Assembly (NCBI GenBank): GCA_038046605.1
Contig: JBBSVW010000106.1
Location: 1 to 17,309, forward strand
DNA length: 17,309 nucleotides
Reading direction: 5' to 3'
Source: Candidatus Micrarchaeota archaeon
Lineage (GTDB): Archaea > Micrarchaeota > Micrarchaeia > Norongarragalinales > SBBD01
Each line of letters starts with the position of its first letter. The stretch's first letter is position 1. Positions 1 through 14,315 of this stretch are shown piece by piece. Below the pieces are notes generated by a model. It had not been told where the DNA came from, did not search any database, and was given only the letters and a program-made list of their open reading frames with translations. The position numbers and the translations under genes were made by a program.

Positions 1-1
1 A

Positions 2-220
2 TTGCTAAGTGAGGATATGCTGGTTGTTGATTTTGCGTACGTTTTAGGAGGGGAGACACGGCTTATTCGGGATGCGAAGAGGCGAGGGTGCAGGACGATT
101 GACGGGAAACGCCTCCTGATGGAGCAGGCAATGGATGCATACGGAATTTTCTTCGGAAAAAAAGCAGATAGGCGCGCATTTTCGCAGGCAATTAAGTTCG
201 CTTCAAAAAGGGTGAAATAA
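2..220 (+). CDS. aroE: Shikimate dehydrogenase, C-terminal fragment (gene begins before the window)
   Basis: VVDFAY...ETRLIRDAKRRGCRTIDGKRLLMEQA matches the AroE C-terminal D-x-x-Y...T...A...G...DG-x-x-x-L-x-x-Q pattern; lies directly upstream of aroC. Confidence 0.88.
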   Translation: MLSEDMLVVDFAYVLGGETRLIRDAKRRGCRTIDGKRLLMEQAMDAYGIFFGKKADRRAFSQAIKFASKRVK

Positions 221-221
221 G

Positions 222-1295
222 ATGGGGTTCGCATTCGGGAAAAATTTCAGAATAAGGGTTTTCGGCAAGAGCCATGGAAAGAAAATAGGGGTGGTTGTCA
301 GCGGCGTACCGCAGGGAATAGCTATAAACAGGCAGGGCATTCAGGCGGAGCTCGACAGGCGGAGGCCCGGCCAGAGCAGGTTCACGACCCAACGGAATGA
401 GCCGGATGAAGTGGTGATTGAAAGCGGAATCCGGAACGGAAGAACCACGGGCGCGCCCATCAAAATGGCAATTTTCAACAAGGACGTGCAGAGCAAGCCA
501 TACGAGGCGCTCGCATCCACGCCGCGGCCCGGCCATGCGGATTTTACAGCGAGGGAGAAGTACGGCGAAAAAGCGGATCTGCGCGGCGGAGGCTATTTTT
601 CCGGCAGGATGACCGCGTGCTTCGTGATGGCGGGCGCGATTGCAAAGGCGATTTTGCGGAAAAGGGGCATAAAGGCCCTTGCGTACATAAAAAAAATGGG
701 GAGCATATCAGCGCGCGAATTAAAGGACTCTGAAATTGGATCACTCACTTACAAGAGCGACGTGCGCTGCCCGGATAAGGCTGCGGAGAAGAAGATGAAA
801 AAATTGATCGGGAGGCTGAAACGCGAGGGCGATTCCGTCGGCGCAGTGATCGAGTGCCGCATTTTAAACGTGCCTGCAGGGATGGGCGAACCCATGTTCG
901 GCTCCATTGAGAGCAGCATTTCCCGGTTTGTGTTTGCGATCCCGGCAACCAAAGGGATAGAGTTCGGCTCTGGATTCGAAGCGGCACGCATGCGGGGAAG
1001 TGAACATAACGACAGGTTTGCCAAAATAAAGGTGAAAGTGGTAACCCTTTCAAACAATGCTGGAGGGATTCTGGGCGGGCTGGCAAATGGCATGCCGATC
1101 GTTTTCAGGGTTGCGTTCAAGCCCACTTCGAGCATTGCCAAGGAACAGGTCACGTTGAACGTGAAAACGGGGAGGATGGAAAAACTGCAGGTGGGGGGGA
1201 GGCACGATCCCTGCATCGCAATCAGGGCAGTGCCGGTCGTGGAAAGCGCAGCTGCGATTTGCATGGCGGATTATATTTTAGGTGATGAAAAATGA
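222..1295 (+). CDS. aroC: Chorismate synthase
   Basis: Motifs G(K)SHG, RRRPGQS, PRPGHAD, RGGG..SGR, GDSVG, KGIEFGSGF, NNAGGILGG, FKPTSSI, GRHDPCI. Confidence 0.97.
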   Translation: MGFAFGKNFRIRVFGKSHGKKIGVVVSGVPQGIAINRQGIQAELDRRRPGQSRFTTQRNEPDEVVIESGIRNGRTTGAPIKMAIFNKDVQSKPYEALASTPRPGHADFTAREKYGEKADLRGGGYFSGRMTACFVMAGAIAKAILRKRGIKALAYIKKMGSISARELKDSEIGSLTYKSDVRCPDKAAEKKMKKLIGRLKREGDSVGAVIECRILNVPAGMGEPMFGSIESSISRFVFAIPATKGIEFGSGFEAARMRGSEHNDRFAKIKVKVVTLSNNAGGILGGLANGMPIVFRVAFKPTSSIAKEQVTLNVKTGRMEKLQVGGRHDPCIAIRAVPVVESAAAICMADYILGDEK

Positions 1296-2407
1296 ACGGG
1301 ACCAAATTGGAGAAACTCCGACGGAAAATCGACAGGATTGATGCGAAGTTTATCAGCCTGGTGGCACAGAGGCTCGAAACGACCGAAAACATCGGCTACC
1401 TGAAACGCAGCAGGGGGGCGGTTGTGGAGGACCCCGCAAGGAAGGCGGAGGTGCTTGAGCGCGCAGCGCAGCTCGCTTCTGCAAAGGACGTCAGGCCGGA
1501 ATTCATATCGGCAATCATGTCCCAGATGATGTTGGAGGCGGAAGAGGTGCAGCGGGGAGGCAGACCCACAATCGCATTCCAGGGGGAGCGCGGCGCTTAT
1601 AGCGAAGCTGCCGGCAACAGCCTGTTCCCGCAGAAAATTTTCATTCCGTGCGAAACCTTCAGGCAGGTTTTCGAAGCGGTTGAAAGCGGGGAGGCGCAAT
1701 ATGCCATCGTGCCAATTGAGAACTCCACAGAAGGGAGCATAAACGAGGTGTACGATTTGCTGCTGGAGAAGCAATTGCACATCCATGCCGAGACCGTGGT
1801 GCAGGTGCGGCATTGCCTCATGGCAGACAGGGAGGCATCATTAGCCGAGATTATGGAGGTCTACACGCACCCCCAGGCGCTGGCGCAATGCCGGAAATTC
1901 ATCGAGCAGAAACTCCCGTATGCACGAATTATTCCGTTCTACGATACCGCGGGCGCGGCTAAAATGATCGCTGAAAACGGCAAGCGGAACATCGCCGCCA
2001 TCGCCAGCCAAGCCGCTGCGAAATACTACGGATTGAAGGAACTTGCCGCCGGCATAGAGGACAACAGGAGCAACTTCACCCGATTCCTGCTCCTTTCCAA
2101 AGCAACTGCCGAAAAGCCGGAAAACCCCAAAACCTCTCTGGTGTTCTCCCTCAAGCATAAGCCCGGCGCGCTATTTTCGGCCTTGAGGCCGTTTGCAGAC
2201 AAGGGCATCAACCTCACTAAAATAGAGTCACGGCCTACGAAGGGGACGCCTTGGGAATACCTGTTCTACATGGATTTCGAGGGGGATGCAAGGGAGGGAA
2301 AATTTGCGGAGGCGATTGAACAGCTGAAGGAATTTGCGGAATTCTTCAAATTGCTCGGCGTCTACGAAAAGGCAAAACGCAACGGATCGGCGGATGGGAA
2401 TGAATGA
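1292..2407 (+). CDS. pheA: Bifunctional chorismate mutase / prephenate dehydratase (P-protein, AroQ + PDT + ACT)
   Basis: N-terminal LRRKIDRID AroQ helix; FQGERGAYSE, PIENSTEGSI, HPQALAQC, NFTRF, INLTKIESRP, WEYLFYMDFEG; ATGA overlap with aroC. Confidence 0.97.
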   Translation: MNGTKLEKLRRKIDRIDAKFISLVAQRLETTENIGYLKRSRGAVVEDPARKAEVLERAAQLASAKDVRPEFISAIMSQMMLEAEEVQRGGRPTIAFQGERGAYSEAAGNSLFPQKIFIPCETFRQVFEAVESGEAQYAIVPIENSTEGSINEVYDLLLEKQLHIHAETVVQVRHCLMADREASLAEIMEVYTHPQALAQCRKFIEQKLPYARIIPFYDTAGAAKMIAENGKRNIAAIASQAAAKYYGLKELAAGIEDNRSNFTRFLLLSKATAEKPENPKTSLVFSLKHKPGALFSALRPFADKGINLTKIESRPTKGTPWEYLFYMDFEGDAREGKFAEAIEQLKEFAEFFKLLGVYEKAKRNGSADGNE

Positions 2408-2420
2408 AACCCGGCAAAGA

Positions 2421-3194
2421 ATGAAGCCCGGGCAAAGAGGCACTGTGAATATGCTCGGCCATAACGATAAAGGAAAAATCGCCGTGATCGGAATCGGCAA
2501 GCTAGGCGCCGCCATCGCTAAATTCTTGGTGAAGCGCGGATTCCGGGTTCTCGTTTTCGATAAGTACAAACGGGTTAAAATCAGGGGAGCGGAGAATGCA
2601 AAATCCCTGAAATCTGCTGTTGGGAGCGCGGATATGGTCATCCTGTCTGTTTCCCTTGCAAACACGCAAGAGGTTTTGGCCGAACTTTCTAAAATTCTCA
2701 AACCTGCCCAAATTTTGGTGGAATTGGCGGGAGTCAAAACGCCCTTTGCTGCAACACTCCGAAAAATGCCCTGCAAGGCCGTTTCGCTGCATCCCTTATT
2801 CGGCGACTTTGAATCCCTGGAGGGAAAAAACGTCATCATCGTGAAAAACAAGGATGCAGCCTTGGAAAAAAGCGCCTCAAGGCATCTAAAAAAATTTGGC
2901 GCAAACGTGATTTTTATGCGGACCGAGGAACATGACCGAATCATGGCCCAACGACAGCTGCCCGCATACGTTCTCTCGAAGCTCTTTTACGAGATTGCCG
3001 GAAACATCCCCCTCGATGCACTTACTCCCATGATGAAAAAGCATCAGGAGCTTGCGAAGGAAGTGCTGTCGGAATGGCCCCTCTATGATTCGATGCTCAA
3101 ACTGAACCCGCATTCAAGGAAGATGATTGAGAGGACGGAAAAGCAACTCAAAAAGATGAAACGGAAATATTCGAAACGGCAAAATCAAAAATAG
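2421..3194 (+). CDS. tyrA: Prephenate/arogenate dehydrogenase (TyrA family); start uncertain (2400, 2421, 2445 or 2451)
   Basis: Rossmann VIGIGKLG, SLHPLFG and EEHDRIMA motifs; located between pheA and aroA. Confidence 0.88.
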   Translation: MKPGQRGTVNMLGHNDKGKIAVIGIGKLGAAIAKFLVKRGFRVLVFDKYKRVKIRGAENAKSLKSAVGSADMVILSVSLANTQEVLAELSKILKPAQILVELAGVKTPFAATLRKMPCKAVSLHPLFGDFESLEGKNVIIVKNKDAALEKSASRHLKKFGANVIFMRTEEHDRIMAQRQLPAYVLSKLFYEIAGNIPLDALTPMMKKHQELAKEVLSEWPLYDSMLKLNPHSRKMIERTEKQLKKMKRKYSKRQNQK

Positions 3195-4450
3195 TGAATA
3201 AAATGATCAGGAACATAAGTAAATTGGGGAAGCCGGTAAATGCGTCCATCATTGCCCAGCCGTCAAAGGCGCATACGCTGAGGGCGATAATCGTCGCTTC
3301 GCTAGCCGGAGGCAAATCGGTAATTGAAAAACCCCTCTTGGCTGACGACCAACTTGCGGCAATTAAGGCAATGCGTAGGCTGGGCGCGAAAATAATAATT
3401 CAGGAAAAGGAGCTCGTAATAATCGGAATTCCCAAATTCAAGAAAATTGCCCTCAACGCCGGAAGTTCCGGCTTCCTCGCCCGTGCCCTGCTTGCAATCG
3501 CAACTGCTTCCGGAGAGGGAATCACCGTCGATGCCAGCCCCCAAATGAGGAAAAGGCCCATTTCTGAATTATGCCTCGCCCTTTCCCAATTGGGAGCCAA
3601 AATCATTTTCCTCCGAAAGCCCAATCACTTTCCGGCCGCAATAAAGGGGCCGTTGAAAGGCGGAAAGATCGTTCTCGATGCGGGAAAAAGCTCCCAATTC
3701 CTTTCTGCAATATTACTTGCTGCGCCCCTGGCCTCGGCTTCCATTGAAATAACGGCAAAAAATCTGGTGTCCGGGCCTTATGTGAACATCACGCTTGAAA
3801 TAATGGAAAAATTCGGAGTGAAAGTGCAAAAAAGGGGTAACGAATTCAAAATCGCGCCCCAAAAATACATGCCAACAAACATGAGCATAGAGGGAGATTA
3901 CAGTTCCGCGGCGTTCTTCATGGAGCTCGCGGCGATAACCGGAGGTAAAGTGAAAATTGCCGGATTAAGTCGGGAAACAAAGCAAGGGGACAAAGCCATC
4001 CTGCCCATTCTTGAAAAGATGGGATGTAATATCCATCGAAGCCGGAATACAGTCGAAGTGACCGGCCCTAAAATCCTGAAACCCGTAATTTTCAATATGA
4101 AAAATTTTCCGGATTTGGCCGTTCCCATAGCGGTTACGGCGGCGTTTGCAAATGGCACCAGCATCCTGCAAAACATTGGCCAGCTGAAATTTAAGGAAAG
4201 CGACAGGTTGGAAGCCATAAAAATCAATTTAGGAAAAATGGGCGTGAAAGTTGAGGAAAGGAACGGCAATCTGGCCATTCACGGGAATTCCAACGCCCAT
4301 GGCGCAACCATCAACCCCTTCAACGACCACCGCATCGCCATGGCGTTTGCGATTGCAGGGCTGAGAACCGGCAACATGAAAATCAGAAATGCGGAGTGCG
4401 TCAGAAAAAGCTTTCCTACATTCTGGAAAGAAATCGAAAAATTATTTTAA
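3194..4450 (+). CDS. aroA: 3-phosphoshikimate 1-carboxyvinyltransferase (EPSP synthase)
   Basis: PSKAH..RA, MRKRP, SSQFLSAILL, EGDYSSA, QGD, FPDL, KESDRL, DHRIAM, VRKSFPTFW motifs. Confidence 0.96.
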   Translation: MNKMIRNISKLGKPVNASIIAQPSKAHTLRAIIVASLAGGKSVIEKPLLADDQLAAIKAMRRLGAKIIIQEKELVIIGIPKFKKIALNAGSSGFLARALLAIATASGEGITVDASPQMRKRPISELCLALSQLGAKIIFLRKPNHFPAAIKGPLKGGKIVLDAGKSSQFLSAILLAAPLASASIEITAKNLVSGPYVNITLEIMEKFGVKVQKRGNEFKIAPQKYMPTNMSIEGDYSSAAFFMELAAITGGKVKIAGLSRETKQGDKAILPILEKMGCNIHRSRNTVEVTGPKILKPVIFNMKNFPDLAVPIAVTAAFANGTSILQNIGQLKFKESDRLEAIKINLGKMGVKVEERNGNLAIHGNSNAHGATINPFNDHRIAMAFAIAGLRTGNMKIRNAECVRKSFPTFWKEIEKLF

Positions 4451-5242
4451 TAAGGTCATTTCCTTCGCGTGCCGCTCCAATGCCTCCAGCGCCGCCGCCC
4501 TTTTTTCCGGCGTGATTCCGCCCTTGAAGAATTCGCCGTAAATTCTAATCAGCTGGGATCCCTCAATTACACCGTCCGCGCCAGCTTCGAATGCAGCTTT
4601 CGCATGCTCGGGCTTCGAAATGCCGAAGCCGATTGCAACCGGGATGGAAGAATGAGCCTTAACCCGTCTGATCAATTCCAAAGAATATTGTTGCATCTCC
4701 TCCCTTGCGCCCGTGATTCCGATTACCGCCACCAAATAAACGAAACCGGTTGCTTCAGAGAGGATGTTTTTCATTCTTTCCTCGGAGGTTGTGGGGGAAA
4801 TCATGTAAATGAGGTCCAGATTATGCGCTTTGCAGGCTTCCCTTAATTCTGCGGATTCCTCAAACGGCAAATCCGCCGCAAGCACGCCGTCGCCGCCCGC
4901 ATCCTTCAAATCCCTGCAGAAATCCTCCAATCCGTACTTGAAAATAATGTTGTAGTAAGTCATTGCGATTATCGGCTGGGATATTCGCATTTCCCTTGCC
5001 TTTGCAATTATGGAAATGCATTTTTTTGGAGTAATGCCATTCTTGAGAGCCCTATCGGAGGCCGCCTGTATTACCTGCCCATCCGCCAAAGTGTCTGAAA
5101 AGGGAATTCCCAACTCAAAGAGGGAGGCATGTTTGCTCAATACTTTCATCTGCTGCAAAGTAAAATCTTCGTCGGGGTCGCCGGCGCAAACATAGGGCAA
5201 GTAGGAATTTCCTTTTTTTAGCGCATCTGAAATTCTGCTCAT
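4442..5242 (-). CDS. trpA: Tryptophan synthase alpha subunit
   Basis: [39 protein letters not shown]. Start moved to ATG 5242 (ATGA overlap with trpB stop, GGAGG upstream). Confidence 0.96.
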
Positions 5243-6402
5243 AAGAAACCCTCCATTCTTGCAACCTGCTGCACGTCCTTGTCCCCTCTGCCGGATAGGC
5301 AAATTACAGCCACATCCGAAGGCTTCAGCCGCATCTTCAGCAAATGGGCAATAGCATGCGCGGGCTCCAAGGCGGGCACTATTCCCTCCAACTGGGAAAG
5401 CAAATGGAACGCCTCCAGCGCTTCCTCGTCGGTTGCGGAAACGTACTCTGCGCGTCCGGTGTCCTTCAGGTACGAATGGTAGGGCCCCACGCCGGGATAA
5501 TCCAAGCCCGCCGAAATCGAATGCGTTAATTGCACCTGCCCGTTTTCGTCCTGCAATAAATAGCTCTTCATCCCGTGCAAAATCCCCTGCGAGCCCTTTT
5601 CCAGAGTAGCGCAGTGCTCTTTTGTATCCAGCCCTTTTCCCGCTGCTTCCACGCCTATTAATTTTACTTCAAGATTTTGAACAAAGGGATAAAAGATTCC
5701 AAGCGCGTTGCTTCCCCCGCCCACACACGCAACGACGTAGTTTGGAAGAGTTTTTTCCACCTTCATTATCTGTTCTTTCGTTTCCTCCCCAATCACCTTC
5801 TGGAATTCCCGTACAATTGTGGGAAAGGGATGCGGACCTACAACGGAGCCGATTACGTAATGGGTGCCGATGCAATTTGCCGTGTAATCCCTCAAGGCGG
5901 CATTGATCGCATTCTTGAGTGTTTTGGATCCAGCCTCGACAATATTCACTTTGGCCCCGAGCAGCTTCATCCGGTATACGTTCAGCTTCTGCCTCTCCAC
6001 ATCCTCCGCACCCATGTAAATTTCGCATTCCAAATTCAGCAATGCGGCCGCAGTTGCAGTGGCGACGCCGTGCTGCCCTGCGCCGGTTTCCGCAATTACC
6101 CTTCCCTTGCCCATCCTTTTTGCAAGCAGGCATTGCCCCAACGCATTGTTGATCTTATGCGCACCGGTGTGCAAAAGGTCCTCGCGCTTGAGATAGATTT
6201 TTGCGCCCATTTTTTTCGAAAGGTTTTTGGCAAAATAGAGCGGGGTGGGGCGGCCGGCGTAATTTTCCAAATAATAATGCAATTCTGCAAGGAAGGCCCC
6301 GTCCGCAAGCGCTTTCCCGAATTCCGTTTCAAGCTCCATCAAGGTTTCCATCAGGGTCTCGGGCACGAACTGCCCCCCGAATTCCCCAATATATTTTTTC
6401 AT
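5239..6402 (-). CDS. trpB: Tryptophan synthase beta subunit (TrpB1 type)
   Basis: [24 protein letters not shown] (PLP lysine), [38 protein letters not shown]. Confidence 0.98.
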
Positions 6403-7145
6403 AATTCACACCCCTTCAATTCCCTTATTTTCCCGGCCATATTTTGGGATTGCATGATCGAAGTCCCGACTAGAAACGATCTTGCTCCGAACGGCAGGAG
6501 CTCCCGTATCTCCTTGCAAGAAAGGATGCCGCTTTCCGAGACGAGAATTTTCCCCTCCGGCACATATTTCGCCAGCCTTTTCGTCCTGGAAATATCAACC
6601 GAGAGATCGTCGAAACTGCGATTGTTGATTCCGATGACGTCCGATATTTTTCCAGCTGCCTCGATCTCAGCCTTTGAAAAACATTCCACGAGAGGCTGCA
6701 TCCCCAAGTCCGCCGCCATGCCGGCAAAATGGCCCAAATCCTCCCCGATTATTTTCGGAATCAGCAGGACCGCATCCGCGCCGAACGCATCCGCCTCGCG
6801 AATCTGCTTTTCAGTTACGATGAAATCCTTGCATAAAACAGGCAGGCGGCTGTTCATTTTAGCCAGCGTGATGTTCTCCAAATTTCCCCCAAAGGCAGTG
6901 GGTTCGGTGAGGATTGATATCGCATCCGCACCCGCTTTTTCAAATATTTTTGCACTTGCGGCAGCATCAAATTTCCCCAATTTTCCCCCTGATGGGGAAG
7001 CGGGCTTGAGCTCTGCAATCAACGAATATGGTTTTGCAAGCAACGCCCTTTGGAAATCCTGCTTTCTTATCCCAATTCGTGCCTTCGGCGCCAGCATTTC
7101 CCTTCTTTTGTGATATTTGATTATTTTTTCAATTTTCCTATGCAT
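6399..7145 (-). CDS. trpC: Indole-3-glycerol phosphate synthase (no fused TrpF domain)
   Basis: [55 protein letters not shown]. Start at ATG 7145 preferred (GAGG upstream). Confidence 0.95.
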
Positions 7146-8139
7146 TTGATTCAACCCTCAATTTGTCCAGTGCCTCCCTCGCGGCGCCGGAATGGATGCT
7201 ATCCAGCGCAATTCCGATTCCTTTTGAAATGCCGGCAGCCTTACCAGCTATGTAGATTGCAGCGCCGGCGTTTATGATCACCGAATCCAAATAAGGCGAA
7301 TGGATTCCATCCAAAACATCCCTGATTATGCGCGCATTTTCCTTTGCATCCCCGCCTTTTATGGCGCCCAGCGTGAACGATGAAAAACCGAATTCTTGAG
7401 GATTTATCACGTAATCGCGAATTGCGCCATTTGAAATTTCTGCGGCAAGGGTTTCCGAGGACGCTGAAATCTCATCCGTCTCCGAGGCGACAACCAGGGC
7501 CCTTTCGGAGCCCAGCAGACGCAGCACTTCCGCGATTTTCGGCAGGAGCGCCTTATCATACACCCCGAGCACTTGGAATTTCACTTTCGCGGGATTGCAG
7601 AGAGGGCCAAGAAGGTTGAATACCGTCCTGAAGCCCAACTGTTTCCGTATTGGCGCAACGAACATCATGGATGGATGGAAGTTGGGCGCAAAAAGGAAGG
7701 CGATATTGCATTTTCTGAGGCACGTTTCCGCGCGTCCCGCATCCATGTCCACGTTGATCCCCAATTCCTTCAACACGTCCGCAGAGCCGCATCTGCTGGA
7801 TATGCTTTTGTTTCCGTGCTTCGCAACCGGTATGCCTGCGCCCGCAACAACAAAGGAAGCGGCGGTGCTGATGTTGAAGGTGCCCTTTCCGTCCCCGCCC
7901 GTTCCGCATAAATCCATTGCATTTGGTGGCGCCTTAACCGAAACGGACTTCTCCCTCATGACCTTAGCCAAGCCGTAAATTTCCGCCGGGGTTTCCCCTT
8001 TCATTTTCAAGGCCGTCAGGAAAGCGGCTATATGGGAGTCCGGCGCGTTTCCTCCAGTAATCTCCTCCATCGCCCCCTCCGCTTCGTCTGTTTCCAAATC
8101 CCTTTTCTCAACCAATTTTTGGATCGTTTCCGCCAGCAT
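7138..8139 (-). CDS. trpD: Anthranilate phosphoribosyltransferase
   Basis: KGET, DLCGTGGDG..TFNIST, VAKHGN, GSADVL, FAPNFHP, RTVFNLLGPL. Start moved to ATG 8139 (GAGGTG upstream). Confidence 0.97.
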   Translation of the reverse strand: MLAETIQKLVEKRDLETDEAEGAMEEITGGNAPDSHIAAFLTALKMKGETPAEIYGLAKVMREKSVSVKAPPNAMDLCGTGGDGKGTFNISTAASFVVAGAGIPVAKHGNKSISSRCGSADVLKELGINVDMDAGRAETCLRKCNIAFLFAPNFHPSMMFVAPIRKQLGFRTVFNLLGPLCNPAKVKFQVLGVYDKALLPKIAEVLRLLGSERALVVASETDEISASSETLAAEISNGAIRDYVINPQEFGFSSFTLGAIKGGDAKENARIIRDVLDGIHSPYLDSVIINAGAAIYIAGKAAGISKGIGIALDSIHSGAAREALDKLRVESNA

Positions 8140-8144
8140 ATTGC

Positions 8145-8705
8145 TCACACCTCGTAAAAATTCCTCATTATCTTTTTCCCGTCCTGCGTGAGGATGGACT
8201 CCGGATGAAATTGGACGCCGTAGATGGGAAGTGTCCGGTGCTGCACTCCCATGATCTCGTTCTGCTCGGTTTCTGCCGTGATCTCCAGGCAATCGGGCAA
8301 GTCCTGCCTGTCGATAATCAGGGAATGGTAACGCACCGCCGAAAACGGGTTTTCCACTCCCTTGAAAATTCCCTTTTTCCTATGGAAGATTTTGCTCGTT
8401 TTTCCGTGCAGGAGCTGCTTTGCCCGAATTACCCTGCCGCCGTATGCCTCAGCCATGGCCTGGTGCCCTAAACACACCCCCAAAACCGGCTGCTCGGGCT
8501 GCAGTTTCAAAATCTCAAGCGTCGCCTTTGAATCCCTCGGATGGCCGGGCCCGGGGCTGAGGACGATTTTATCGTAATTTTTGAGGTGCAGGCCTGCGAC
8601 CGGCTCGTCGTTCCTTCGCACGGTTACTTCCGCGCCGGCCGCTTCGAAATATTGCGCCAAATTGTATGTGAAGGAATCATAATTGTCAATCAGCAATATC
8701 TTCAT
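8145..8705 (-). CDS. trpG: Anthranilate synthase component II (glutamine amidotransferase)
   Basis: IDNYDSFTYNL, LSPGPGHP, GVCLGHQ, RYHSL, GVQFHPES (Cys-His-Glu triad). Confidence 0.97.
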   Translation of the reverse strand: MKILLIDNYDSFTYNLAQYFEAAGAEVTVRRNDEPVAGLHLKNYDKIVLSPGPGHPRDSKATLEILKLQPEQPVLGVCLGHQAMAEAYGGRVIRAKQLLHGKTSKIFHRKKGIFKGVENPFSAVRYHSLIIDRQDLPDCLEITAETEQNEIMGVQHRTLPIYGVQFHPESILTQDGKKIMRNFYEV

Positions 8706-10059
8706 GTGATGCACCCCTGATGGCCTCGACCATCGCCCTCATCTTCGCCTCCGTTTCCTGGAACTCGCGTTCAGGAATGGAATCGTAAACAATGCCCGCT
8801 CCCGCCTGTAGATGCGCCCTTTTTCCTGAAATGATTATGCTCCGGATGGTTATCGCAAAATCCATGTTTCCGGAGAAGTCGAAATAGCCAACAGCGCCAC
8901 CATAAGGCCCGCGCCTTTGCTTCTCGAACTTCTCTATGAGTTCCATCGCCCGGATTTTCGGAGCGCCGGACACGGTTCCCGCAGGCAGGCACGCCTTCAA
9001 CGCATCAAAACCGTCCTTTCCCTCCCGCAATTTGGCAGTGACATTCGAGACGATGTGCTGCACGTGGGAGTATTTTTCCACCCCCATCAGCTCATCCACG
9101 ATTACGCTGCCGGGCGCCGCGACCTTTCCCAAATCATTGCGGTGCAAATCCACCAGCATTATGTGCTCCGCCCGTTCCTTCTCATCCTGAAGCAGCTCTA
9201 TTTTCAGCTTCTCGTCCTCTTCAACATCCTCGGAACGCGGCCGCGTCCCCGCAATGGGCCTCGTTGTGAGGATGCCGTTTTCCAGCCTAACGAGCATTTC
9301 CGGGGAGGAGCCCATGATTTTCGAATCCCCGAAATCCAGGTAAAAAAGGTACGGGGACGGATTTATCCTACGCAAAATTTTATAGATCAGCGCCTCGTCG
9401 CCCTCGAAATCGAAGGAGACCCTGCGCGAGAGCACGGCCTGGAAGATATCACCGGCCTTTATGTGCACCTTCGCCTTCTCAACCGCAGCCTCGAATTCCT
9501 CCTTGGGAAAATCAGAGCGTTCCTTAAGAAGGGAAAATTCCGCAGAATGCTTCTGCCCCATTATTTTTTCGATTTCGCCGGAATCAGCCGGGCCATGCGA
9601 GATAAGGTAAATTTTACCATGGAGATGATCGAAGCATATCACCGATTCCGGAATTATGAAATGCATATCCGGCAAATCGAGGTCGTCCTGCAGTTCCGAT
9701 GGCAAATTCTCAAAATACCTCACGGCATCGTAGGATAGGTACCCCACCATCCCGCCAGAAAACGCCAGCGTAGGTATTTTTTCCGCCGAAAACCGGGAAA
9801 ATTGCTTCCGCAACTCATCGAATGGCCGCTTGGACTCGAATTTTTCCCTCCCCCCATTCATTACTTCGATCCCGCTCCCCTTTGCCTTGAAGGAAAAAAT
9901 GGGCTTGAAGCCGATGATGGAGAACCTCGCGGTCTTCTTAATTCCCTCGACGGACTCGAGCAGGAAGCATCCGCTGCCGAAATGCGCCCTTATTGAAAGG
10001 AACGCTTCGAATGGATTGGCGCTGCAGCGCAACTCTTTTACAGTAGTGGTTAGATGCAT
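8686..10059 (-). CDS. trpE: Anthranilate synthase component I
   Basis: LLES (Trp feedback motif), GDIFQAVLS, NPSPY, SSPE, PIAGT, EHIMLVDL.RND, PAGTVSGAPK, QAGAGIV.DS; GGTGA SD at 10064-10068. Confidence 0.97.
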   Translation of the reverse strand: MHLTTTVKELRCSANPFEAFLSIRAHFGSGCFLLESVEGIKKTARFSIIGFKPIFSFKAKGSGIEVMNGGREKFESKRPFDELRKQFSRFSAEKIPTLAFSGGMVGYLSYDAVRYFENLPSELQDDLDLPDMHFIIPESVICFDHLHGKIYLISHGPADSGEIEKIMGQKHSAEFSLLKERSDFPKEEFEAAVEKAKVHIKAGDIFQAVLSRRVSFDFEGDEALIYKILRRINPSPYLFYLDFGDSKIMGSSPEMLVRLENGILTTRPIAGTRPRSEDVEEDEKLKIELLQDEKERAEHIMLVDLHRNDLGKVAAPGSVIVDELMGVEKYSHVQHIVSNVTAKLREGKDGFDALKACLPAGTVSGAPKIRAMELIEKFEKQRRGPYGGAVGYFDFSGNMDFAITIRSIIISGKRAHLQAGAGIVYDSIPEREFQETEAKMRAMVEAIRGASHEDIAD

Positions 10060-10104
10060 AAAATCACCAAAAGCAAAGGCAGAATCAGCAAAAGCTCCGG
10101 CTAC

Positions 10105-10161
10105 TCAGGCACGCCAGGAGAACTTCTCAAAAACCATGGGATCTATAAGTCCGTTTACCAT
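10105..10161 (-). CDS. Putative trp operon leader peptide MVNGLIDPMVFEKFSWRA (alternative start 10137: MVFEKFSWRA)
   Basis: Read by hand: ATG GTA AAC GGA CTT ATA GAT CCC ATG GTT TTT GAG AAG TTC TCC TGG CGT GCC TGA. It lies between the TATA box and trpE and ends 45 nt before the trpE start. Confidence 0.6.
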   Translation of the reverse strand: MVNGLIDPMVFEKFSWRA

Positions 10162-10185
10162 AGTACTATTTTTAGGCGGATCAAA

Positions 10186-10195
10186 CTTTATAAAA
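10186..10195 (-). promoter_or_regulatory. TATA box of the trp operon
   Basis: TTTTATAAAG on minus, about 25 nt upstream of the leader ATG; BRE weak. Confidence 0.65.
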
Positions 10196-10243
10196 CTAAT
10201 GGATCGAATCGTTCATCAATCGGTCAACGCTCCCAGACGGGCT

Positions 10244-10260
10244 GAAAAGCGTTTTTTAAG
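10244..10260 (+). promoter_or_regulatory. BRE-TATA promoter of tRNA-Pro
   Basis: GAAAAGCG followed by TTTTTTAAG, ending 27 nt before the tRNA 5' end. Confidence 0.6.
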
Positions 10261-10287
10261 CTATACTTACCATTAATTGATCCGAAT

Positions 10288-10543
10288 GGGGTCGTGGGGT
10301 AATCTGGCATCCTACCGCCTTGGGGACTTTCCCTGCTAGCTTATGCGAAAAGCAATGAAAGCTAATGTGGCGGCGATCCGAGTTCAAAGGCCAAATGGTT
10401 TTGATTCGCGCGCAAATTCGTTTCTTGGCGGCGGAGCCGTTCGCCACCTTCTCCCACGAGAATTTGGTTCTCGGGGGCCGTGCAGACTTTGTCTGCCCGG
10501 TTTCTAAAGAAGGGGGCAAGGCATGAAAATCTCGGCGACCCCA
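10288..10543 (+). tRNA. tRNA-Pro(GGG) with two introns: 10326-10367 (37/38) and 10389-10529 (59/60)
   Basis: Exons 10288-10325, 10368-10388 and 10530-10543 join into a cloverleaf: acceptor GGGGTCG/CGACCCC, anticodon stem CCGCC/GGCGG, loop TT-GGG-GT, T arm CCGAG-TTCAAAT-CTCGG. Both junctions form BHB-type motifs. CCA is not encoded. Confidence 0.93.
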
Positions 10544-10553
10544 TGTCTGCAAC

Positions 10554-10586
10554 GGGGGGCATAGCCCCCCTTGACCAGACTGGTCA
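10554..10586 (+). repeat. Two adjacent inverted repeats downstream of tRNA-Pro
   Basis: GGGGGGC-ATA-GCCCCCC (10554-10570) and TGACCAG-A-CTGGTCA (10572-10586). Confidence 0.8.
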
Positions 10587-10651
10587 TTCCCCCCAAATTT
10601 GTGCTGCGAATTATTTTTTGCAACCTCCTGTTTTCGTCTCATTCCCATTTG

Positions 10652-10660
10652 TTTTTTAAC
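10652..10660 (+). promoter_or_regulatory. Possible TATA box of tRNA-Gly
   Basis: TTTTTTAAC about 25 nt upstream of the tRNA, with the same form as the tRNA-Pro promoter. Confidence 0.5.
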
Positions 10661-10684
10661 TGAAAGCACCAAAATATTGGGGAC

Positions 10685-10847
10685 GCGGCTGTGGTCTAGA
10701 TGCCTTTCCTTCCGGAAAAAAGCGCGTAGCGCCAAAATCCTTTCTTTTGCGGCGCCATACGCTTTTCTTTTGGAAAGAAAAGCAAGGCAGTGGTCAGGAT
10801 CTGGGCTTTCCAAGCCTATGGCACGGGTTCGAATCCCGTCAGCCGCA
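10685..10847 (+). tRNA. tRNA-Gly(TCC) with a 91-nt D-loop intron (10700-10790, position 15/16)
   Basis: Exons 10685-10699 and 10791-10847: acceptor GCGGCTG/CAGCCGC, anticodon stem TGGGC/GCCTA, TCC at 10809-10811, T arm ACGGG-TTCGAAT-CCCGT. Splice motif: central helix GTCT/AGGC with bulges AG^A and AG^T. Confidence 0.92.
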
Positions 10848-10861
10848 CTCTTTGACACCTA

Positions 10862-10884
10862 TAGGGGGGAAGGATTCCCCCCTA
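10862..10884 (+). repeat. Perfect 10-bp inverted repeat downstream of tRNA-Gly
   Basis: TAGGGGGGAA-GGA-TTCCCCCCTA. Confidence 0.8.
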
Positions 10885-10928
10885 CTCGTAGTCGCCTCTA
10901 CCCCCTTTCAAAACTTTGCAAATTTAAA

Positions 10929-11333
10929 TCAGACAATAAGCCTCATTTTCAGCTCGAAAAAAACATCCCCGTCGTAAAATATGCGGCTAGTGGGGATTAT
11001 TTTTTTGAAATTATTTTCGTTCTTATTTCCGCAGTTTATTTTCATGGAATTGGCGCGCGCATCGATGATTAAGCAGTAATTGCCAAGTTGGAAAATTAAA
11101 TCCTCAAATTCTGACCTTATTTTTTCTTTTGCAAGCAAATTCCCCCTCGAGAAATCGGCGAATTCCGAATAATAACCTTTCGCGGCGATTTGCTGGAAAT
11201 CGTTTGCGAGCTGCTGCAAATAAAGATCCGAATAGGTGGGAAGTGGCAAATAACGGATTGCGGAAATAAGCGAAATTGCAATTAGCAGCGTGATTGCCGC
11301 CTCAAGTGAAAAAATGAAGCCCTTATGCGCCAT
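10929..11333 (-). CDS. Pilin-like membrane protein with a class III (prepilin-type) signal peptide
   Basis: N-terminus MAHKG|FIFSLEAAITLLIAISLISAI has a basic residue, Gly and a hydrophobic helix. AATATATAG lies about 25 nt upstream on minus, suggesting a leaderless transcript. Confidence 0.7.
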   Translation of the reverse strand: MAHKGFIFSLEAAITLLIAISLISAIRYLPLPTYSDLYLQQLANDFQQIAAKGYYSEFADFSRGNLLAKEKIRSEFEDLIFQLGNYCLIIDARANSMKINCGNKNENNFKKIIPTSRIFYDGDVFFELKMRLIV

Positions 11334-11627
11334 GGAAAGAAAGGGCCGGAAGCTGCTATATATTCGTTTGGTAGATAAAAAATCAAAAGGAAGTTGATTC
11401 TGGTAGCAATTCTGCGATATGATTGCAATTTATCATCCAGTGCGATGCAGGGAAACGATCCAAAGGCTTGCCGATAAGGATGTTGAAAAGATGGCCGGGG
11501 GCGCCATTCGATAGAAAATAGCATCGGACAATGAGGAACATTTCTTCAGGGCGGCGACCAAAGGAGTTAAAAATAAGTTGCCACCATCCTTAAGTAATAA
11601 GTTTGATGAGGGAAGAGGGCGATTTGA

Positions 11628-14315
11628 ATGAAAAAGATGGTTACTTTTGCGATAATTGCATTGCTATTGCTGGCCTCGATTCAAATATCGGCATCGCCCA
11701 CAGCTTCCTTTGAAGGCAAGAGGGTCATAATCCTTTATAAGAACGAGGTCGGAAAGCAGGATATTGACGAGCTGGGGACGGTTGGCACAAAAATAATGAA
11801 AACCTTCAAGGCAATCAACGCCGTCTCCGCAGAAGTTGATGAGAATCGCATTGCGCAGATTGAATCGGACGAGGATGTGGTTGCCGTTTTCGAGGATTTC
11901 CGCGTCTTTGCATCACTTTCCGGCAGCGTTCCCCAAATCAATGCGGATGACGTGAATTTACTTGGCGGAAGCGGCATCGGGGTGAGGGTTTGCATCGTTG
12001 ACACCGGAGTGGATGATACCCATCCTTCCCTGAATGCGCTGGTTGCTGAATATGATTTTGTGAATCTCGATGCGGATGCGATGGATGACAACGGCCACGG
12101 AACGCATGTGGCGGGCATCGTCGCTTCCAAGCATTCAACTTACAAGGGAGTTGCACCGGGCGCATCCCTGATGGCGGCAAAGGTTTTGGATGCGCAGGGT
12201 TCCGGCTGGACTTCGGATGTTATTGCGGGCATAGATTGGTGCGTTGCAAACGGCGCGGACATAATTTCCATGAGCCTAGGCGCGGGCGCTTACAGCGGCA
12301 CGTGCGATACGTTGCCTATTGCGCAGGCAAGCAATACTGCAGTAGATCAGGGGGTCATGGTATTCGCTGCAACCGGAAACAACGGCTATATCAATTCAAT
12401 ATCCGCGCCGGCATGCGCAAGCAAAGTGATTGCAGTCGGAGCGGTTGATAAAAATGATGGCAGGACACCTTACTCCAATGAGGGAACAGGATTGGACATC
12501 GTCGCCCCCGGAACGAGCATAACCTCAACCTATTTGGGAGGCGGTTTTGCCACCCTTACCGGCACCTCGATGGCGACACCTCATGCTGCCGGGACTGCAG
12601 CGCTGCTTTTAGGGAAAAAGCCCGCTTTGACTACTGCGGAAGTGCGCTCCATCATGCTGGGCTCCGCTAAAGATTTGGGCGCAGCTGGCTTTGATACCAT
12701 TTATGGTTATGGCAGGGTGGATGCACTTGCCGCATGGAATGCTATCGCTGTTGGAAACCAGCCGCCGGTTGCGAATGCGGGGCCGGATAAAACAGCGAGC
12801 GATGCGGATGGAACCGGTTCGGAGGCAGTAATTCTTGATGGTTCCACTTCCTATGATCCCGATGGGATTATCACGAGCTATGAATGGAAGGAGGGCAACC
12901 TGACGCTGGGCACAACTGCGGTTCTAGCAAGCAGCTTTTCGATAGGGACACATACCATCAGCCTGACCGTAACCGACAACAATAATTCGCAATCGAGCGA
13001 TACCGCAATAGTTACTGTGAACGCGAATCAGCCGCCAATTGCAAACGCGGGTGCGGACCAAACGGCAATGGACTCCGATGGCAACGGTTTTGAAACATTC
13101 CTATTGAACGGTTCCGCATCCTCTGACCCCGATGGAACCATAGTAAGCTATGAATGGCAGGAGGGAGCAGCCGTTTTAGGAAATGGTGCAATGATCGCTT
13201 TCAATTTCACAGTTGGAATCCACAATGTGACCTTGAGAGTTACGGACGATTCCGGCGCAAGCAGCACGGATATGGCCACCATAACTGTTACTGCGTTTGC
13301 CAACCAGCCGCCGGTTGCGAATGCGGGGCCGGATAAAACAGCGAGCGATGCGGATGGAACCGGTTCGGAGACGGTCGCTCTTGACGGCTCTGCTTCCTAT
13401 GACACGGACGGCGCAATAGTTTCTTACGAATGGAAGGAGGGCGAAGTTGTTTTAGGAACCGGAGCAGTAATTTCCCCTGTTTTTGCAGTTGGAATGCACA
13501 CGGTTGTTTTGACAATAACGGATAATAATGGTGCGACGGCTTCTGACACGGCGATTGTAACGGTAAATGCAAACCAGCAGCCGGCCGCAAATGCGGGAGC
13601 GGACAAGAACGCTTACACAGGCCAAAATGTGGATTTCGATGGCTCCGCAAGCGCCGACCCCGACGGGAGCATTGTCAGTTATAGTTGGGATTTCGGGGAC
13701 TCCTTCAGTGCAACCGGTGTCACTGCAACTCACGCCTATTCCTCGCCGGGCACTTATACGGCAACACTTACCGTAACGGATAACGGAGGGTTGATGGCAG
13801 GAGATTTTGCCATTGCAACAATAAATGCCCAACCAACTACAATAGCAGTTTTTTCAGATGATTTCCAAAGCGGCGGGTTTGGCAAATGGACGGAGTCAAA
13901 TGAGTTCGACTGGAATGTTGAAAACCCTGCAGAGAGGAACATTCCCAGCTATCCTTCCTCCAATTTAGTCGCGCACGCGGACAAATGCACTTCCTCAAAG
14001 GGATGCATCCTGACGATGAAGACCGGCGCGAATTTAAGCGGCTACCTGAATGCCACCTTGAAATTCTGGAGATATGTGGACAACGATTTGGACAACGGCG
14101 AATTCCTGCAGGTTCAAGTGCTTAACGGCGCAAGCTGGAAAACAATATTCGAATGGAAGAACGGAAGCGGGGATGATGACACGTGGCACTACGAGACATA
14201 CGCCTTGCCGCCGGCTTACCTCACCGGCAATTTCAAGGCAAGGTTCGTCACGAAGGAAAGCTCATCAAGCGAGGATGCGGAAATCGATGACGTTTTGATT
14301 GAGGGAATAAGGTAG
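11628..14315 (+). CDS. Secreted S8 (subtilisin-family) serine protease: signal peptide, I9-like propeptide, catalytic domain, four PKD/Ig-like modules, C-terminal beta-rich domain
   Basis: Catalytic triad motifs IVDTGVD, NGHGTHVAGIVA, GTSMATPH; oxyanion-hole ATGN; four NQ(P/Q)PxANAGxD modules, the last with WDFGD. Confidence 0.95.
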   Translation: MKKMVTFAIIALLLLASIQISASPTASFEGKRVIILYKNEVGKQDIDELGTVGTKIMKTFKAINAVSAEVDENRIAQIESDEDVVAVFEDFRVFASLSGSVPQINADDVNLLGGSGIGVRVCIVDTGVDDTHPSLNALVAEYDFVNLDADAMDDNGHGTHVAGIVASKHSTYKGVAPGASLMAAKVLDAQGSGWTSDVIAGIDWCVANGADIISMSLGAGAYSGTCDTLPIAQASNTAVDQGVMVFAATGNNGYINSISAPACASKVIAVGAVDKNDGRTPYSNEGTGLDIVAPGTSITSTYLGGGFATLTGTSMATPHAAGTAALLLGKKPALTTAEVRSIMLGSAKDLGAAGFDTIYGYGRVDALAAWNAIAVGNQPPVANAGPDKTASDADGTGSEAVILDGSTSYDPDGIITSYEWKEGNLTLGTTAVLASSFSIGTHTISLTVTDNNNSQSSDTAIVTVNANQPPIANAGADQTAMDSDGNGFETFLLNGSASSDPDGTIVSYEWQEGAAVLGNGAMIAFNFTVGIHNVTLRVTDDSGASSTDMATITVTAFANQPPVANAGPDKTASDADGTGSETVALDGSASYDTDGAIVSYEWKEGEVVLGTGAVISPVFAVGMHTVVLTITDNNGATASDTAIVTVNANQQPAANAGADKNAYTGQNVDFDGSASADPDGSIVSYSWDFGDSFSATGVTATHAYSSPGTYTATLTVTDNGGLMAGDFAIATINAQPTTIAVFSDDFQSGGFGKWTESNEFDWNVENPAERNIPSYPSSNLVAHADKCTSSKGCILTMKTGANLSGYLNATLKFWRYVDNDLDNGEFLQVQVLNGASWKTIFEWKNGSGDDDTWHYETYALPPAYLTGNFKARFVTKESSSSEDAEIDDVLIEGIR
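12756..13370 (+). repeat. Identical 69-nt direct repeat (12756-12824 and 13302-13370) in PKD-like modules 1 and 3
   Basis: Both copies encode NQPPVANAGPDKTASDADGTGSE with identical codons. Confidence 0.9.

Follow-up and report, generated by a model that had tools for sequence, protein, structure and literature searches.

We analysed a 17,309-nt stretch of DNA (the window; contig JBBSVW010000106.1 of a Candidatus Micrarchaeota archaeon) in which the trp operon is preceded, on the minus strand, by an upstream open reading frame (uORF) of 18 codons with a single Trp codon near its end. We read this uORF as a translated leader at the 5' end of a leaderless trp mRNA, serving as a ribosome-based sensor of charged tRNA-Trp, and we put the probability of this reading at about one half. 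The lineage very probably uses ribosome-read leader ORFs for aromatic amino acids, a conclusion from comparative sequence analysis that is much firmer than the one for the uORF of the window. We rate the uORF more highly than we would on its own because no TrpY repressor gene was found in the genome, because the same genome holds a second leader and because such leaders precede DAHP synthase at 27 of 30 loci. Leader-peptide attenuation is a textbook bacterial mechanism that relies on ribosomes following RNA polymerase, and to our knowledge the sensing of amino acids by ribosomes on leader mini-genes is so far known only from bacteria.

The trp leader of the window

The first-pass annotation of the window had proposed a TATA box (10195-10186), an ATG opening an 18-codon ORF, a TGG codon, a U-rich tract and the Shine-Dalgarno (SD) sequence of trpE, and all of these are present on the minus strand at the coordinates collected in Table 1. 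The A/T-only 8-mers of the TATA-like box TTTTATAAAG begin at -33 and -34 from the uORF ATG. Across the genome, the positions of TATA-like 8-mers relative to the ATGs of 1034 long ORFs have their peak at -31 to -28, and leaderless mRNAs are therefore common here. The ATG at 10161 fits a transcription start on it or a few bases before it; with these distances, the earlier claim that it lies near the expected start of transcription holds. TTTTATAAAG is also the top match within 10260-10040 of a weak promoter matrix, which was derived by expectation maximisation from 665 upstream regions and discriminates poorly (a median best score of 5.65 in random windows versus 6.8 for the TATA box).

The uORF shares its frame with trpE, with one stop codon (TGA) between them, and contains an internal in-frame ATG (10137-10135). 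Three aromatic residues (F, F and W) fall within its last eight codons. No A/T-only 8-mer occurs between the uORF and trpE, and the 5' untranslated region should therefore measure at least ~85-100 nt, in a genome that looks mostly leaderless. The spacer contains T4 runs at 10093-10090, 10072-10069 and 10063-10060, a T3 run at 10077-10075 and a direct repeat composed of GCTTTTGCTGATT (10095-10083) and GCTTTTGGTGATT (10074-10062). Read-through of the UGA, which would join the uORF to trpE, was considered and set aside: the genes of the window are all intact under translation table 11, and the response would run in the wrong direction.

What follows is inferred: that the uORF is translated, that the ribosome stalls, which way the output responds and which downstream step is affected. 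Transcription would start a few bases before the ATG at 10161, allowing immediate ribosome loading. When Trp-tRNA is scarce, the ribosome would stall with UGG (10116-10114) in the A site and cover the RNA from ~10131 to 10101, blocking the hairpin 10127-10090 and also protecting the first half of the leader. More transcripts would then pass, or survive beyond, the U-rich tract 10104-10060 and serve for translation at the SD-led start of trpE. With Trp in good supply, the ribosome would terminate at the UGA and leave, and the leader, now folded and exposed, would give a lower output through termination at the U tract, decay or poorer translation.

In the hairpin, 10127-10119 pairs with 10098-10090 and an inner stem is enclosed; this is the local minimum-energy fold (-13.4 kcal/mol). 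It is excluded in the model with a ribosome at F14, W16 or the stop codon, in keeping with the first-pass proposal that a stalled ribosome would block it. The same proposal had allowed for altered access to the trpE SD, and this part gained no support from the model. Relief of SD sequestration by the stalled ribosome was rejected as a mechanism and is a point against the reading, since the probability that the SD is unpaired in the trp leader is flat at 0.44-0.49 whatever the ribosome position (0.54-0.69 in the aro leader described below). Termination at the U-rich tract or protection from decay is the likelier downstream step, because SD exposure does not change in the model and because pairing of codons with the SD is unsupported in the aro family.

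Aromatic leader ORFs before DAHP synthase

The genome of the window (G000, 90.7% complete; C62 and C79 are other contigs of it, and L-numbers denote loci) contains a second leaderless ORF, located on C62 before the genes for DAHP synthase and aroB. It encodes MAREVLSKSVSAGFSSFGYFYFWQ (24 codons, ending FGYFYFWQ before the stop), with seven aromatic codons within the last 11. The order on C62 is rpoN, a TATA 8-mer at -32, the ATG of MAREVLSKSVSAGFSSFGYFYFWQ, a spacer of 117 nt that holds two strong hairpins together with runs of U5, U4 and U3, the SD AGGTGA, DAHP synthase (274.4 bits, with an FXD domain) and aroB. The fold of this aro leader reaches -62.8 kcal/mol with a z score of -2.72, which none of 200 shuffles equalled (0/200).

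A search across the class turned up DAHP synthase in 79 of 401 genomes. At 27 of the 30 DAHP-synthase loci returned by the search, an aromatic-rich ORF lies upstream, defined as a same-strand ATG ORF of 10-50 codons with at least five aromatics within 10 residues; the background for such ORFs in the genome of the window is 0.066 per 700 nt. Examples of their ends, each directly before the stop, are RFGYFYFYFA, FSFGYFYWQN, FFSFSFWY and FGFFSFGYRPQENHE. The 90 nt around the stop codons fold with a mean z score of -1.94, being below -1 in 20/27, below -2 in 13/27 and above -1 in 7/27. Two subgroups have conserved hairpins that begin at the stop codon, with compensatory changes at 6/11 and 3/13 pairs. 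Direct pairing of the aromatic-codon run with the SD region of DAHP synthase was rejected as a mechanism (mean z +0.25 over 25 leaders).

Judged by these features, the aro leaders are a conserved leader-ORF family in archaea and a candidate for the first archaeal leader-peptide attenuator family. Trp occurs in 20 of the 27 leaders and exactly once in 19. The first-pass annotation had counted it as a caveat that the uORF of the window has only one Trp codon; there is indeed one TGG, and the caveat is weakened, a single W being the norm (19/27 aro leaders). The pattern shows that this lineage reports Trp with a single UGG.

The aro leader of G000 and the trp leader are alike in having a leaderless ORF (the TATA element lies at -32 and at -33/-34, respectively), sensory codons by the stop, a U-rich spacer and an SD-led gene; a hairpin at the stop accompanies the aro leader and, as a candidate that does not exceed shuffles, the trp leader.

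On the minus strand of C79 (L239 ~2885-2814), a further TATA-preceded short ORF encodes MRAALRLEGFLWSCFYFWGYWHY, with three W, three F and three Y. It lies 130 nt upstream of the gene for a 493-aa protein with a PEP-utilisers mobile domain.

trpE starts in relatives

TrpE turned up in 10 of the 68 genomes searched in the order and in 58 of 401 in the class, with an identity to the TrpE of the window of at most 53% in every case; genome and metagenome contig collections gave no TrpE above 48% besides the record of the window itself. We inspected 57 trpE loci (38 + 19; among the 19, one had no match and one was missing its 5' end). Three layouts are seen repeatedly: a TrpY type, a frameshift-type ORF and a stand-alone Trp-codon ORF.

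The TrpY type, present at many loci, has a divergent TrpY-family gene, GTAC boxes in pairs next to the TATA box and a trpE that starts from a simple SD and ATG; one TrpY representative from the relatives matches NF053754 with 192.3 bits (cut-off 180). In G000, at 90.7% completeness, no TrpY-family gene was found by protein search (E up to 10) or with NF053754 (E up to 1), and the family search was positive in 11 of 14 control genomes. The window has no divergent regulator gene and carries a tRNA gene in that place. Its palindrome TAGTACTA occurs in one copy downstream of the TATA box, whereas the paired GTAC boxes of relatives lie just upstream of TATA; TAGTACTA is a possible operator remnant.

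Short Trp-codon ORFs occupy the 5' end of trpE at 13 loci (L003, L004, L005, L110, L112, L119, L125, L128, L129, L144, L146, L150 and L156). Each is preceded by an SD of its own or, at leaderless distance, by a TATA box; it has a single TGG at one of codons 7-11, and trpE lies in the +1 frame relative to it. The presumed shift site is CTT_TGG in ten, TTT_TGG in one and CAT or CGT in place of the first codon in two; the base after TGG is C in 11/13, and an SD-like hexamer (GGCGGT, AGGGAT and similar) stands exactly 3 nt upstream of the site. At four of the 13 loci, the trpE frame lacks any ATG, GTG or TTG. In L111, a congener of L005 and L110, the extra base is absent, and its single frame (SGFLGAR) resembles the trans-frame product of L110 (EGFL/GLR, with the shift at the slash). 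Synonymous positions of the trpE frame are frozen at the site, with TTT at 11/11 Phe codons and TAC at 7/7 Tyr codons; in the same genes overall, TTT makes up 56% of Phe codons and TAC 43% of Tyr codons.

These trpE sites look like a +1 frameshift sensor in the style of release factor 2 (RF2). The signal would be the supply of Trp-tRNA, because the A-site codon is the sense codon UGG. Frameshift-type starts would imply that TrpE is mis-annotated in those genomes. The window is not of this type: its uORF ends in TGA and shares the frame of trpE, its site UCC_UGG_C is not slippery, and the +1 frame stops after four codons.

Stand-alone Trp-codon ORFs are present in the window, in G033 (L009) and in L132. 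The G033 leader has the same layout as that of the window: a uORF encoding MNAGAITDVAWRPFTA is followed by 40 nt of pyrimidine-rich spacer and then by the SD and ATG of trpE. The best match of the G033 TrpE fragments is the TrpE of the window, to which the G033 TrpE is in turn the nearest. The GAT GTG GCT TGG C of the G033 uORF resembles the frameshift-type consensus GAT GTA CTT TGG C. A comparison of trpE upstream regions, which the first-pass annotation had suggested, yields a similar layout in relatives only at G033, with every TrpE at most 53% identical to that of the window. A search of 99 genomes with the pattern GGATNTACTTTGG, allowing one mismatch, gave matches at control level, and both exact matches lie away from trpE.

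In L132 (G322), an insertion of ~90 nt between a TrpY-type promoter and the trpE SD creates the leaderless-looking ORF MTMITLARWTLTHESIR with one Trp codon. The insertion is absent from the congeners L118, L121, L122 and L142, and the ORF may possibly be a chance product.

Three metagenome contigs (L050, L051 and L052; TrpE 45% identical) show a textbook bacterial trp attenuator behind a sigma-70-like promoter. The leader peptide contains ANLYWWYWYYAHK (LYWWYWYY; four W in six codons in L050 and L052), and a hairpin is followed by the T-rich run TTTTTTGTTTG, giving a hairpin-U7 terminator in L050 and L052. The latter two loci served as a positive control for our reading of upstream regions.

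We tentatively suggest that sensing takes three forms in this class: the aro leaders, the stand-alone single-Trp uORF of the window and G033, and a CUU_UGG_C +1 frameshift that would make TrpE only when Trp-tRNA is scarce.

Alternative explanations, gene context and known systems

Several observations weigh against the uORF of the window being a sensor. It has a single Trp codon and three aromatics in its last eight codons, compared with 5-8 in 10 in the aro leaders, and thus falls short of the five within 10 residues that define the aro family; the conserved hairpin motifs of that family are missing from the trp leader, whose fold is at shuffle level. The hairpin proposed in the first-pass annotation, although it is the local minimum-energy fold, is no better than those of shuffled sequences (z -0.62; 44 of 200 shuffles fold equally well), and the z scores for the whole leader (+0.77, +0.54 and +0.06) do not exceed shuffles. 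A scan for bacterial-type terminators gave 0 sites, the U tracts being 3-4 long. The second A/T-only 8-mer (10174-10167) or the third TATA-like element CTTATAGA could place the transcription start inside or after the uORF. MAFFT aligns TAAAAATA with the TATA box of the G033 trpE promoter, and if TAAAAATA is used as the TATA box, the second ATG (10137) is the likely start of the uORF. DNA contigs of three other sequencing runs are identical to the window over the parts of the leader that they cover and offer no variation. Homology between the window and G033 leaders is not demonstrable, their pairwise alignment being uninformative. In a quick tree, the TrpE of the window falls outside the main clade of the class, near bacterial sequences, and shared ancestry of the leaders is therefore uncertain.

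The ORF may instead be a product of chance. The operon would then have an ordinary promoter and a long 5' untranslated region, the 18-codon frame and its TGG would be without function, and expression would be constitutive or controlled by some protein, for example at TAGTACTA, which overlaps the predicted start site. Dinucleotide shuffles of 10185-10060 (5000 in all) were scored for ATG ORFs of 8-40 codons with W; any such ORF occurred in 790 (15.8%), a loose definition whose result also speaks against a sensor. However, the ORF lay at leaderless distance from the TATA box in 168 shuffles, and in 57 it additionally had W within the last five codons; under strict definitions, the configuration of the window arises by chance in 1.1-3.4%. 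The genome contains 834 TATA+ATG mini-ORFs, of which 261 have W. Such a mini-ORF lies upstream of 25 of 264 SD-led long ORFs, with W in seven, a count that includes trpE and one case inside aroC. Because of the shuffle and genome-wide counts, the uORF taken alone is suggestive, at the few-percent level and no more. Chance would also agree with a trp leader that carries no structure signal and with nearest TrpE relatives of at most 53% identity, among which no conservation is demonstrable. It accounts less well for the leaderless sensory ORFs on the sister aro operon in the same genome and across the class, for the Trp-codon ORFs at trpE in 14 other loci and for the failure to find TrpY in G000. 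We regard chance as possible, if somewhat doubtful.

A decayed relic is unlikely. In this case, the uORF would derive from a Trp-codon leader of the frameshift or G033 type, regulation would have been lost and a new trpE SD and ATG would have arisen downstream. The G033 motif, akin to the frameshift consensus yet apart from the SD-led trpE start, as in the window, agrees with this history, as does the non-slippery UCC_UGG of the uORF. Just ahead of trpE in the window, at the position where relatives have the shift site, TTT TGG TGA stands in the -1 frame, which has no start codon. However, the ATG at leaderless distance and the 18-codon frame are intact, a drifting 57-nt frame would quickly gain stops, and with TrpY absent the operon would be left without Trp control.

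The contig, 17.3 kb as a whole, ends in the 5' part of an archaeal small-subunit ribosomal RNA (rRNA) gene (516.5 bits, Rfam). This fragment has 95-97% identity to same-genus genomes and 71-80% to same-order genomes, and the contig was assigned to this archaeon on these grounds. Synteny with same-genus genomes covers the 16S gene, the PIN and UPF0175 genes, orf134, the tRNA-Gly gene and the tRNA-Pro-like gene and breaks at ~10254-10285. Beyond the break, the same-genus genome G005 has rpoN, rps9 and rpl13; in G000, rpoN sits on C62 with the aro leader after it. Set against same-genus genomes, and reading across the contig gap, the aro and trp genes (window ~1-10285 and C62) look like a single block that was inserted between rpoN and tRNA-Pro; the aro leader would mark one of its ends and the trp leader the opposite one. 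TrpE was found in 0/10 and DAHP synthase in 2/10 other genomes of the family searched.

Table 1. Features of the trp leader and its surroundings (window positions unless another locus is named)
Feature	Coordinates	Strand	Basis or remark
TATA-like box TTTTATAAAG	10186..10195	-	best promoter candidate of the trp operon
Second A/T-only 8-mer TAAAAATA	10167..10174	-	possible alternative TATA box
Third TATA-like element CTTATAGA	10149-10142	-	sequence
8-bp palindrome TAGTACTA	10161..10168	.	between TATA box and ATG
uORF MVNGLIDPMVFEKFSWRA, 18 codons + TGA	10105..10161	-	sequence; ATG 10161-10159, TGA 10107-10105
Sole Trp codon UGG	10114..10116	-	three codons before the stop
Irregular hairpin (candidate)	10090..10127	-	5' arm = codons E-K-F-S-W-R-A; stop codon in loop region; 3' arm ends CUUUU
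U-rich spacer, 45 nt	10060..10104	-	sequence; 22/45 T
SD GGTGAT	10068-10063	-	ahead of trpE ATG 10059
trpE-trpG-trpD-trpC-trpB-trpA operon	4442..10059	-	Pfam matches
trpE	10059-8686	-	Pfam Chorismate_bind, 321.8 bits
aroC, pheA, tyrA-like gene, aroA		+	Pfam search
tRNA-Pro(UGG)-like gene, two introns	10288..10543	+	read from sequence; divergent from trpE
tRNA-Gly(UCC) gene, ~90-nt intron in D region	10685..10847	+	Rfam tRNA model, 30.7 bits on 3' part; 5' part read from sequence
aro leader of C62	L208 1148-1374 (C62 = L208 + 4799)		listing of TATA+ATG mini-ORFs before SD-led genes

The introns of the tRNA-Pro(UGG)-like gene lie at ~10327-10368 (after the anticodon loop) and ~10389-10530 (T loop). 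The second contains copies of a dispersed repeat that is also found on at least seven other contigs of G000, and the 5' part of the gene (10285-10388) is kept as a single copy in 8 of the 10 same-family genomes. The gene at 10288-10543 escapes both ARAGORN and Rfam, and ARAGORN likewise gives no call for the tRNA-Gly(UCC) gene at 10685-10847. RNase P RNA, considered for 10285-10388 on account of a string like GGGAAAGTCC, was rejected; it has no Rfam support, and the segment reads as the 5' part of the tRNA-Pro-like gene. Since this gene occupies the plus strand there, we regard the minus-strand ORF 10256-10858 as spurious, and the trp promoter is confined to the 229-bp divergent intergenic region. 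An S8 subtilase that contains four PKD domains is encoded at 11628-14315 (plus strand), between orf134 and the PIN-domain gene; at the corresponding position of the same-genus genome G006, this gene is missing.

That a classical bacterial attenuator with terminator and antiterminator hairpins was imported with the operon by horizontal transfer is very improbable and largely refuted by the missing structure: the TrpE of the window branches near bacterial sequences, a 45%-identical homologue (L050/L052) has a textbook leader with a hairpin-U7 terminator, and the trp/aro block is absent from 10/10 same-family genomes searched, with synteny broken at the block, but the window has no tandem Trp codons, no four-segment structure and no hairpin-U terminator, its promoter is of the archaeal TATA, leaderless type, and the DAHP synthase of the same block and its leader are of the kind usual in this archaeal class, at 60-68% identity within the order.

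If the suggestion of three forms of sensing is true, it would be the first leader-peptide attenuation in Archaea, and the frameshift-type starts of relatives would be the first case in nature of a regulatory frameshift that responds to starvation for a sense codon. The literature searched contains no report of archaeal leader-peptide attenuation or trpE frameshifting, and none of ribosome-controlled use of aCPSF1/FttA termination. If the uORF of the window works as proposed, charged-tRNA sensing by coupling or occupancy would also operate with archaeal transcription and leaderless translation; for the lineage, such sensing is very likely because of the aro leaders (27/30 loci). Two long-standing questions would become testable, namely how archaeal ribosomes communicate with RNA polymerase, termination factors or RNA decay, and how biosynthesis is regulated in genome-reduced DPANN archaea with few regulators.

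Among known systems, TrpY represses trpEGCFBAD in Methanothermobacter thermautotrophicus, the one Trp-responsive control of a trp operon that is established for archaea, and the passages available from the source describe TrpY and Tar as the archaeal trp regulators (PMC6737238), consistent with the first-pass remark that archaeal trp control is mainly by TrpY. The relatives share with the TrpY system, as far as these passages describe it, a divergent trpY and boxes in the common promoter region; by comparison, the window has no TrpY-family gene that we could find, no divergent regulator and one GTAC palindrome.

According to excerpts of the respective papers, archaeal termination involves aCPSF1 with U tracts (PMC8716108), and transcription-translation coupling is discussed as a basis of attenuation and polarity in archaea (PMC13681488). 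The window resembles the aCPSF1/FttA system as excerpted in having a U-rich tract between leader ORF and trpE and differs from it in that its U runs are short (3-4).

The autoregulatory +1 frameshift of RF2 resembles the starts of relatives, not the leader of the window, in its short zero-frame ORF, its CUU_U site, a slow codon in the A site with C as the next base, an SD-like element that stands 3 nt upstream and a functional protein in the +1 frame; the A-site codon is the stop UGA in RF2 and the sense UGG in the relatives. The sections available from a 2016 review give CUU_U as the RF2 site, UUU_U being a minority variant; they add that the UGA almost always has a C after it and that an internal SD acts as stimulator (PMC5009743). 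The same sections state that no natural functional trans-frame protein from hungry-codon frameshifting was known (PMC5009743), and it is for this that the frameshift-type starts of the relatives matter.

With enterobacterial trpL, the trp leader of the window has in common a short ORF before trpE, a cognate codon near its end, a candidate hairpin over the ORF end and U-rich RNA after it, and the proposal shares the logic that the position of the ribosome reports the supply of charged tRNA. The two differ in that trpL has tandem Trp codons where the window has one, and in that the mutually exclusive 1:2, 2:3 and 3:4 hairpins and the hairpin-U-run terminator are absent from the window, where we see a single irregular hairpin, no terminator-like site and whole-leader z scores at shuffle level, bearing out the first-pass caveat that no classical four-segment antiterminator is present. 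Rfam likewise gave no leader family, either at gathering thresholds in the whole window or at E up to 10 in 9900-11700. Furthermore, the start in the window appears leaderless behind an archaeal TATA box, and archaeal RNA polymerase and termination differ.

By analogy, the closest mechanistic counterpart is the set of leaderless polycysteine short ORFs of mycobacteria (the 'Cys ribulon'), in which, as outlined in the part of the preprint available to us, a stalled ribosome blocks a duplex that sequesters the next ribosome-binding site (bioRxiv 10.1101/834739). As far as that outline goes, the Cys ribulon and the mechanism proposed here both have a leaderless sensory ORF as the first cistron and a stall that alters the next gene, and in both several operons share the principle. 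They differ in host, which is bacterial for the Cys ribulon, in sensory codons, poly-Cys versus a single Trp, and in the downstream step, SD accessibility being unchanged in our model of the window.

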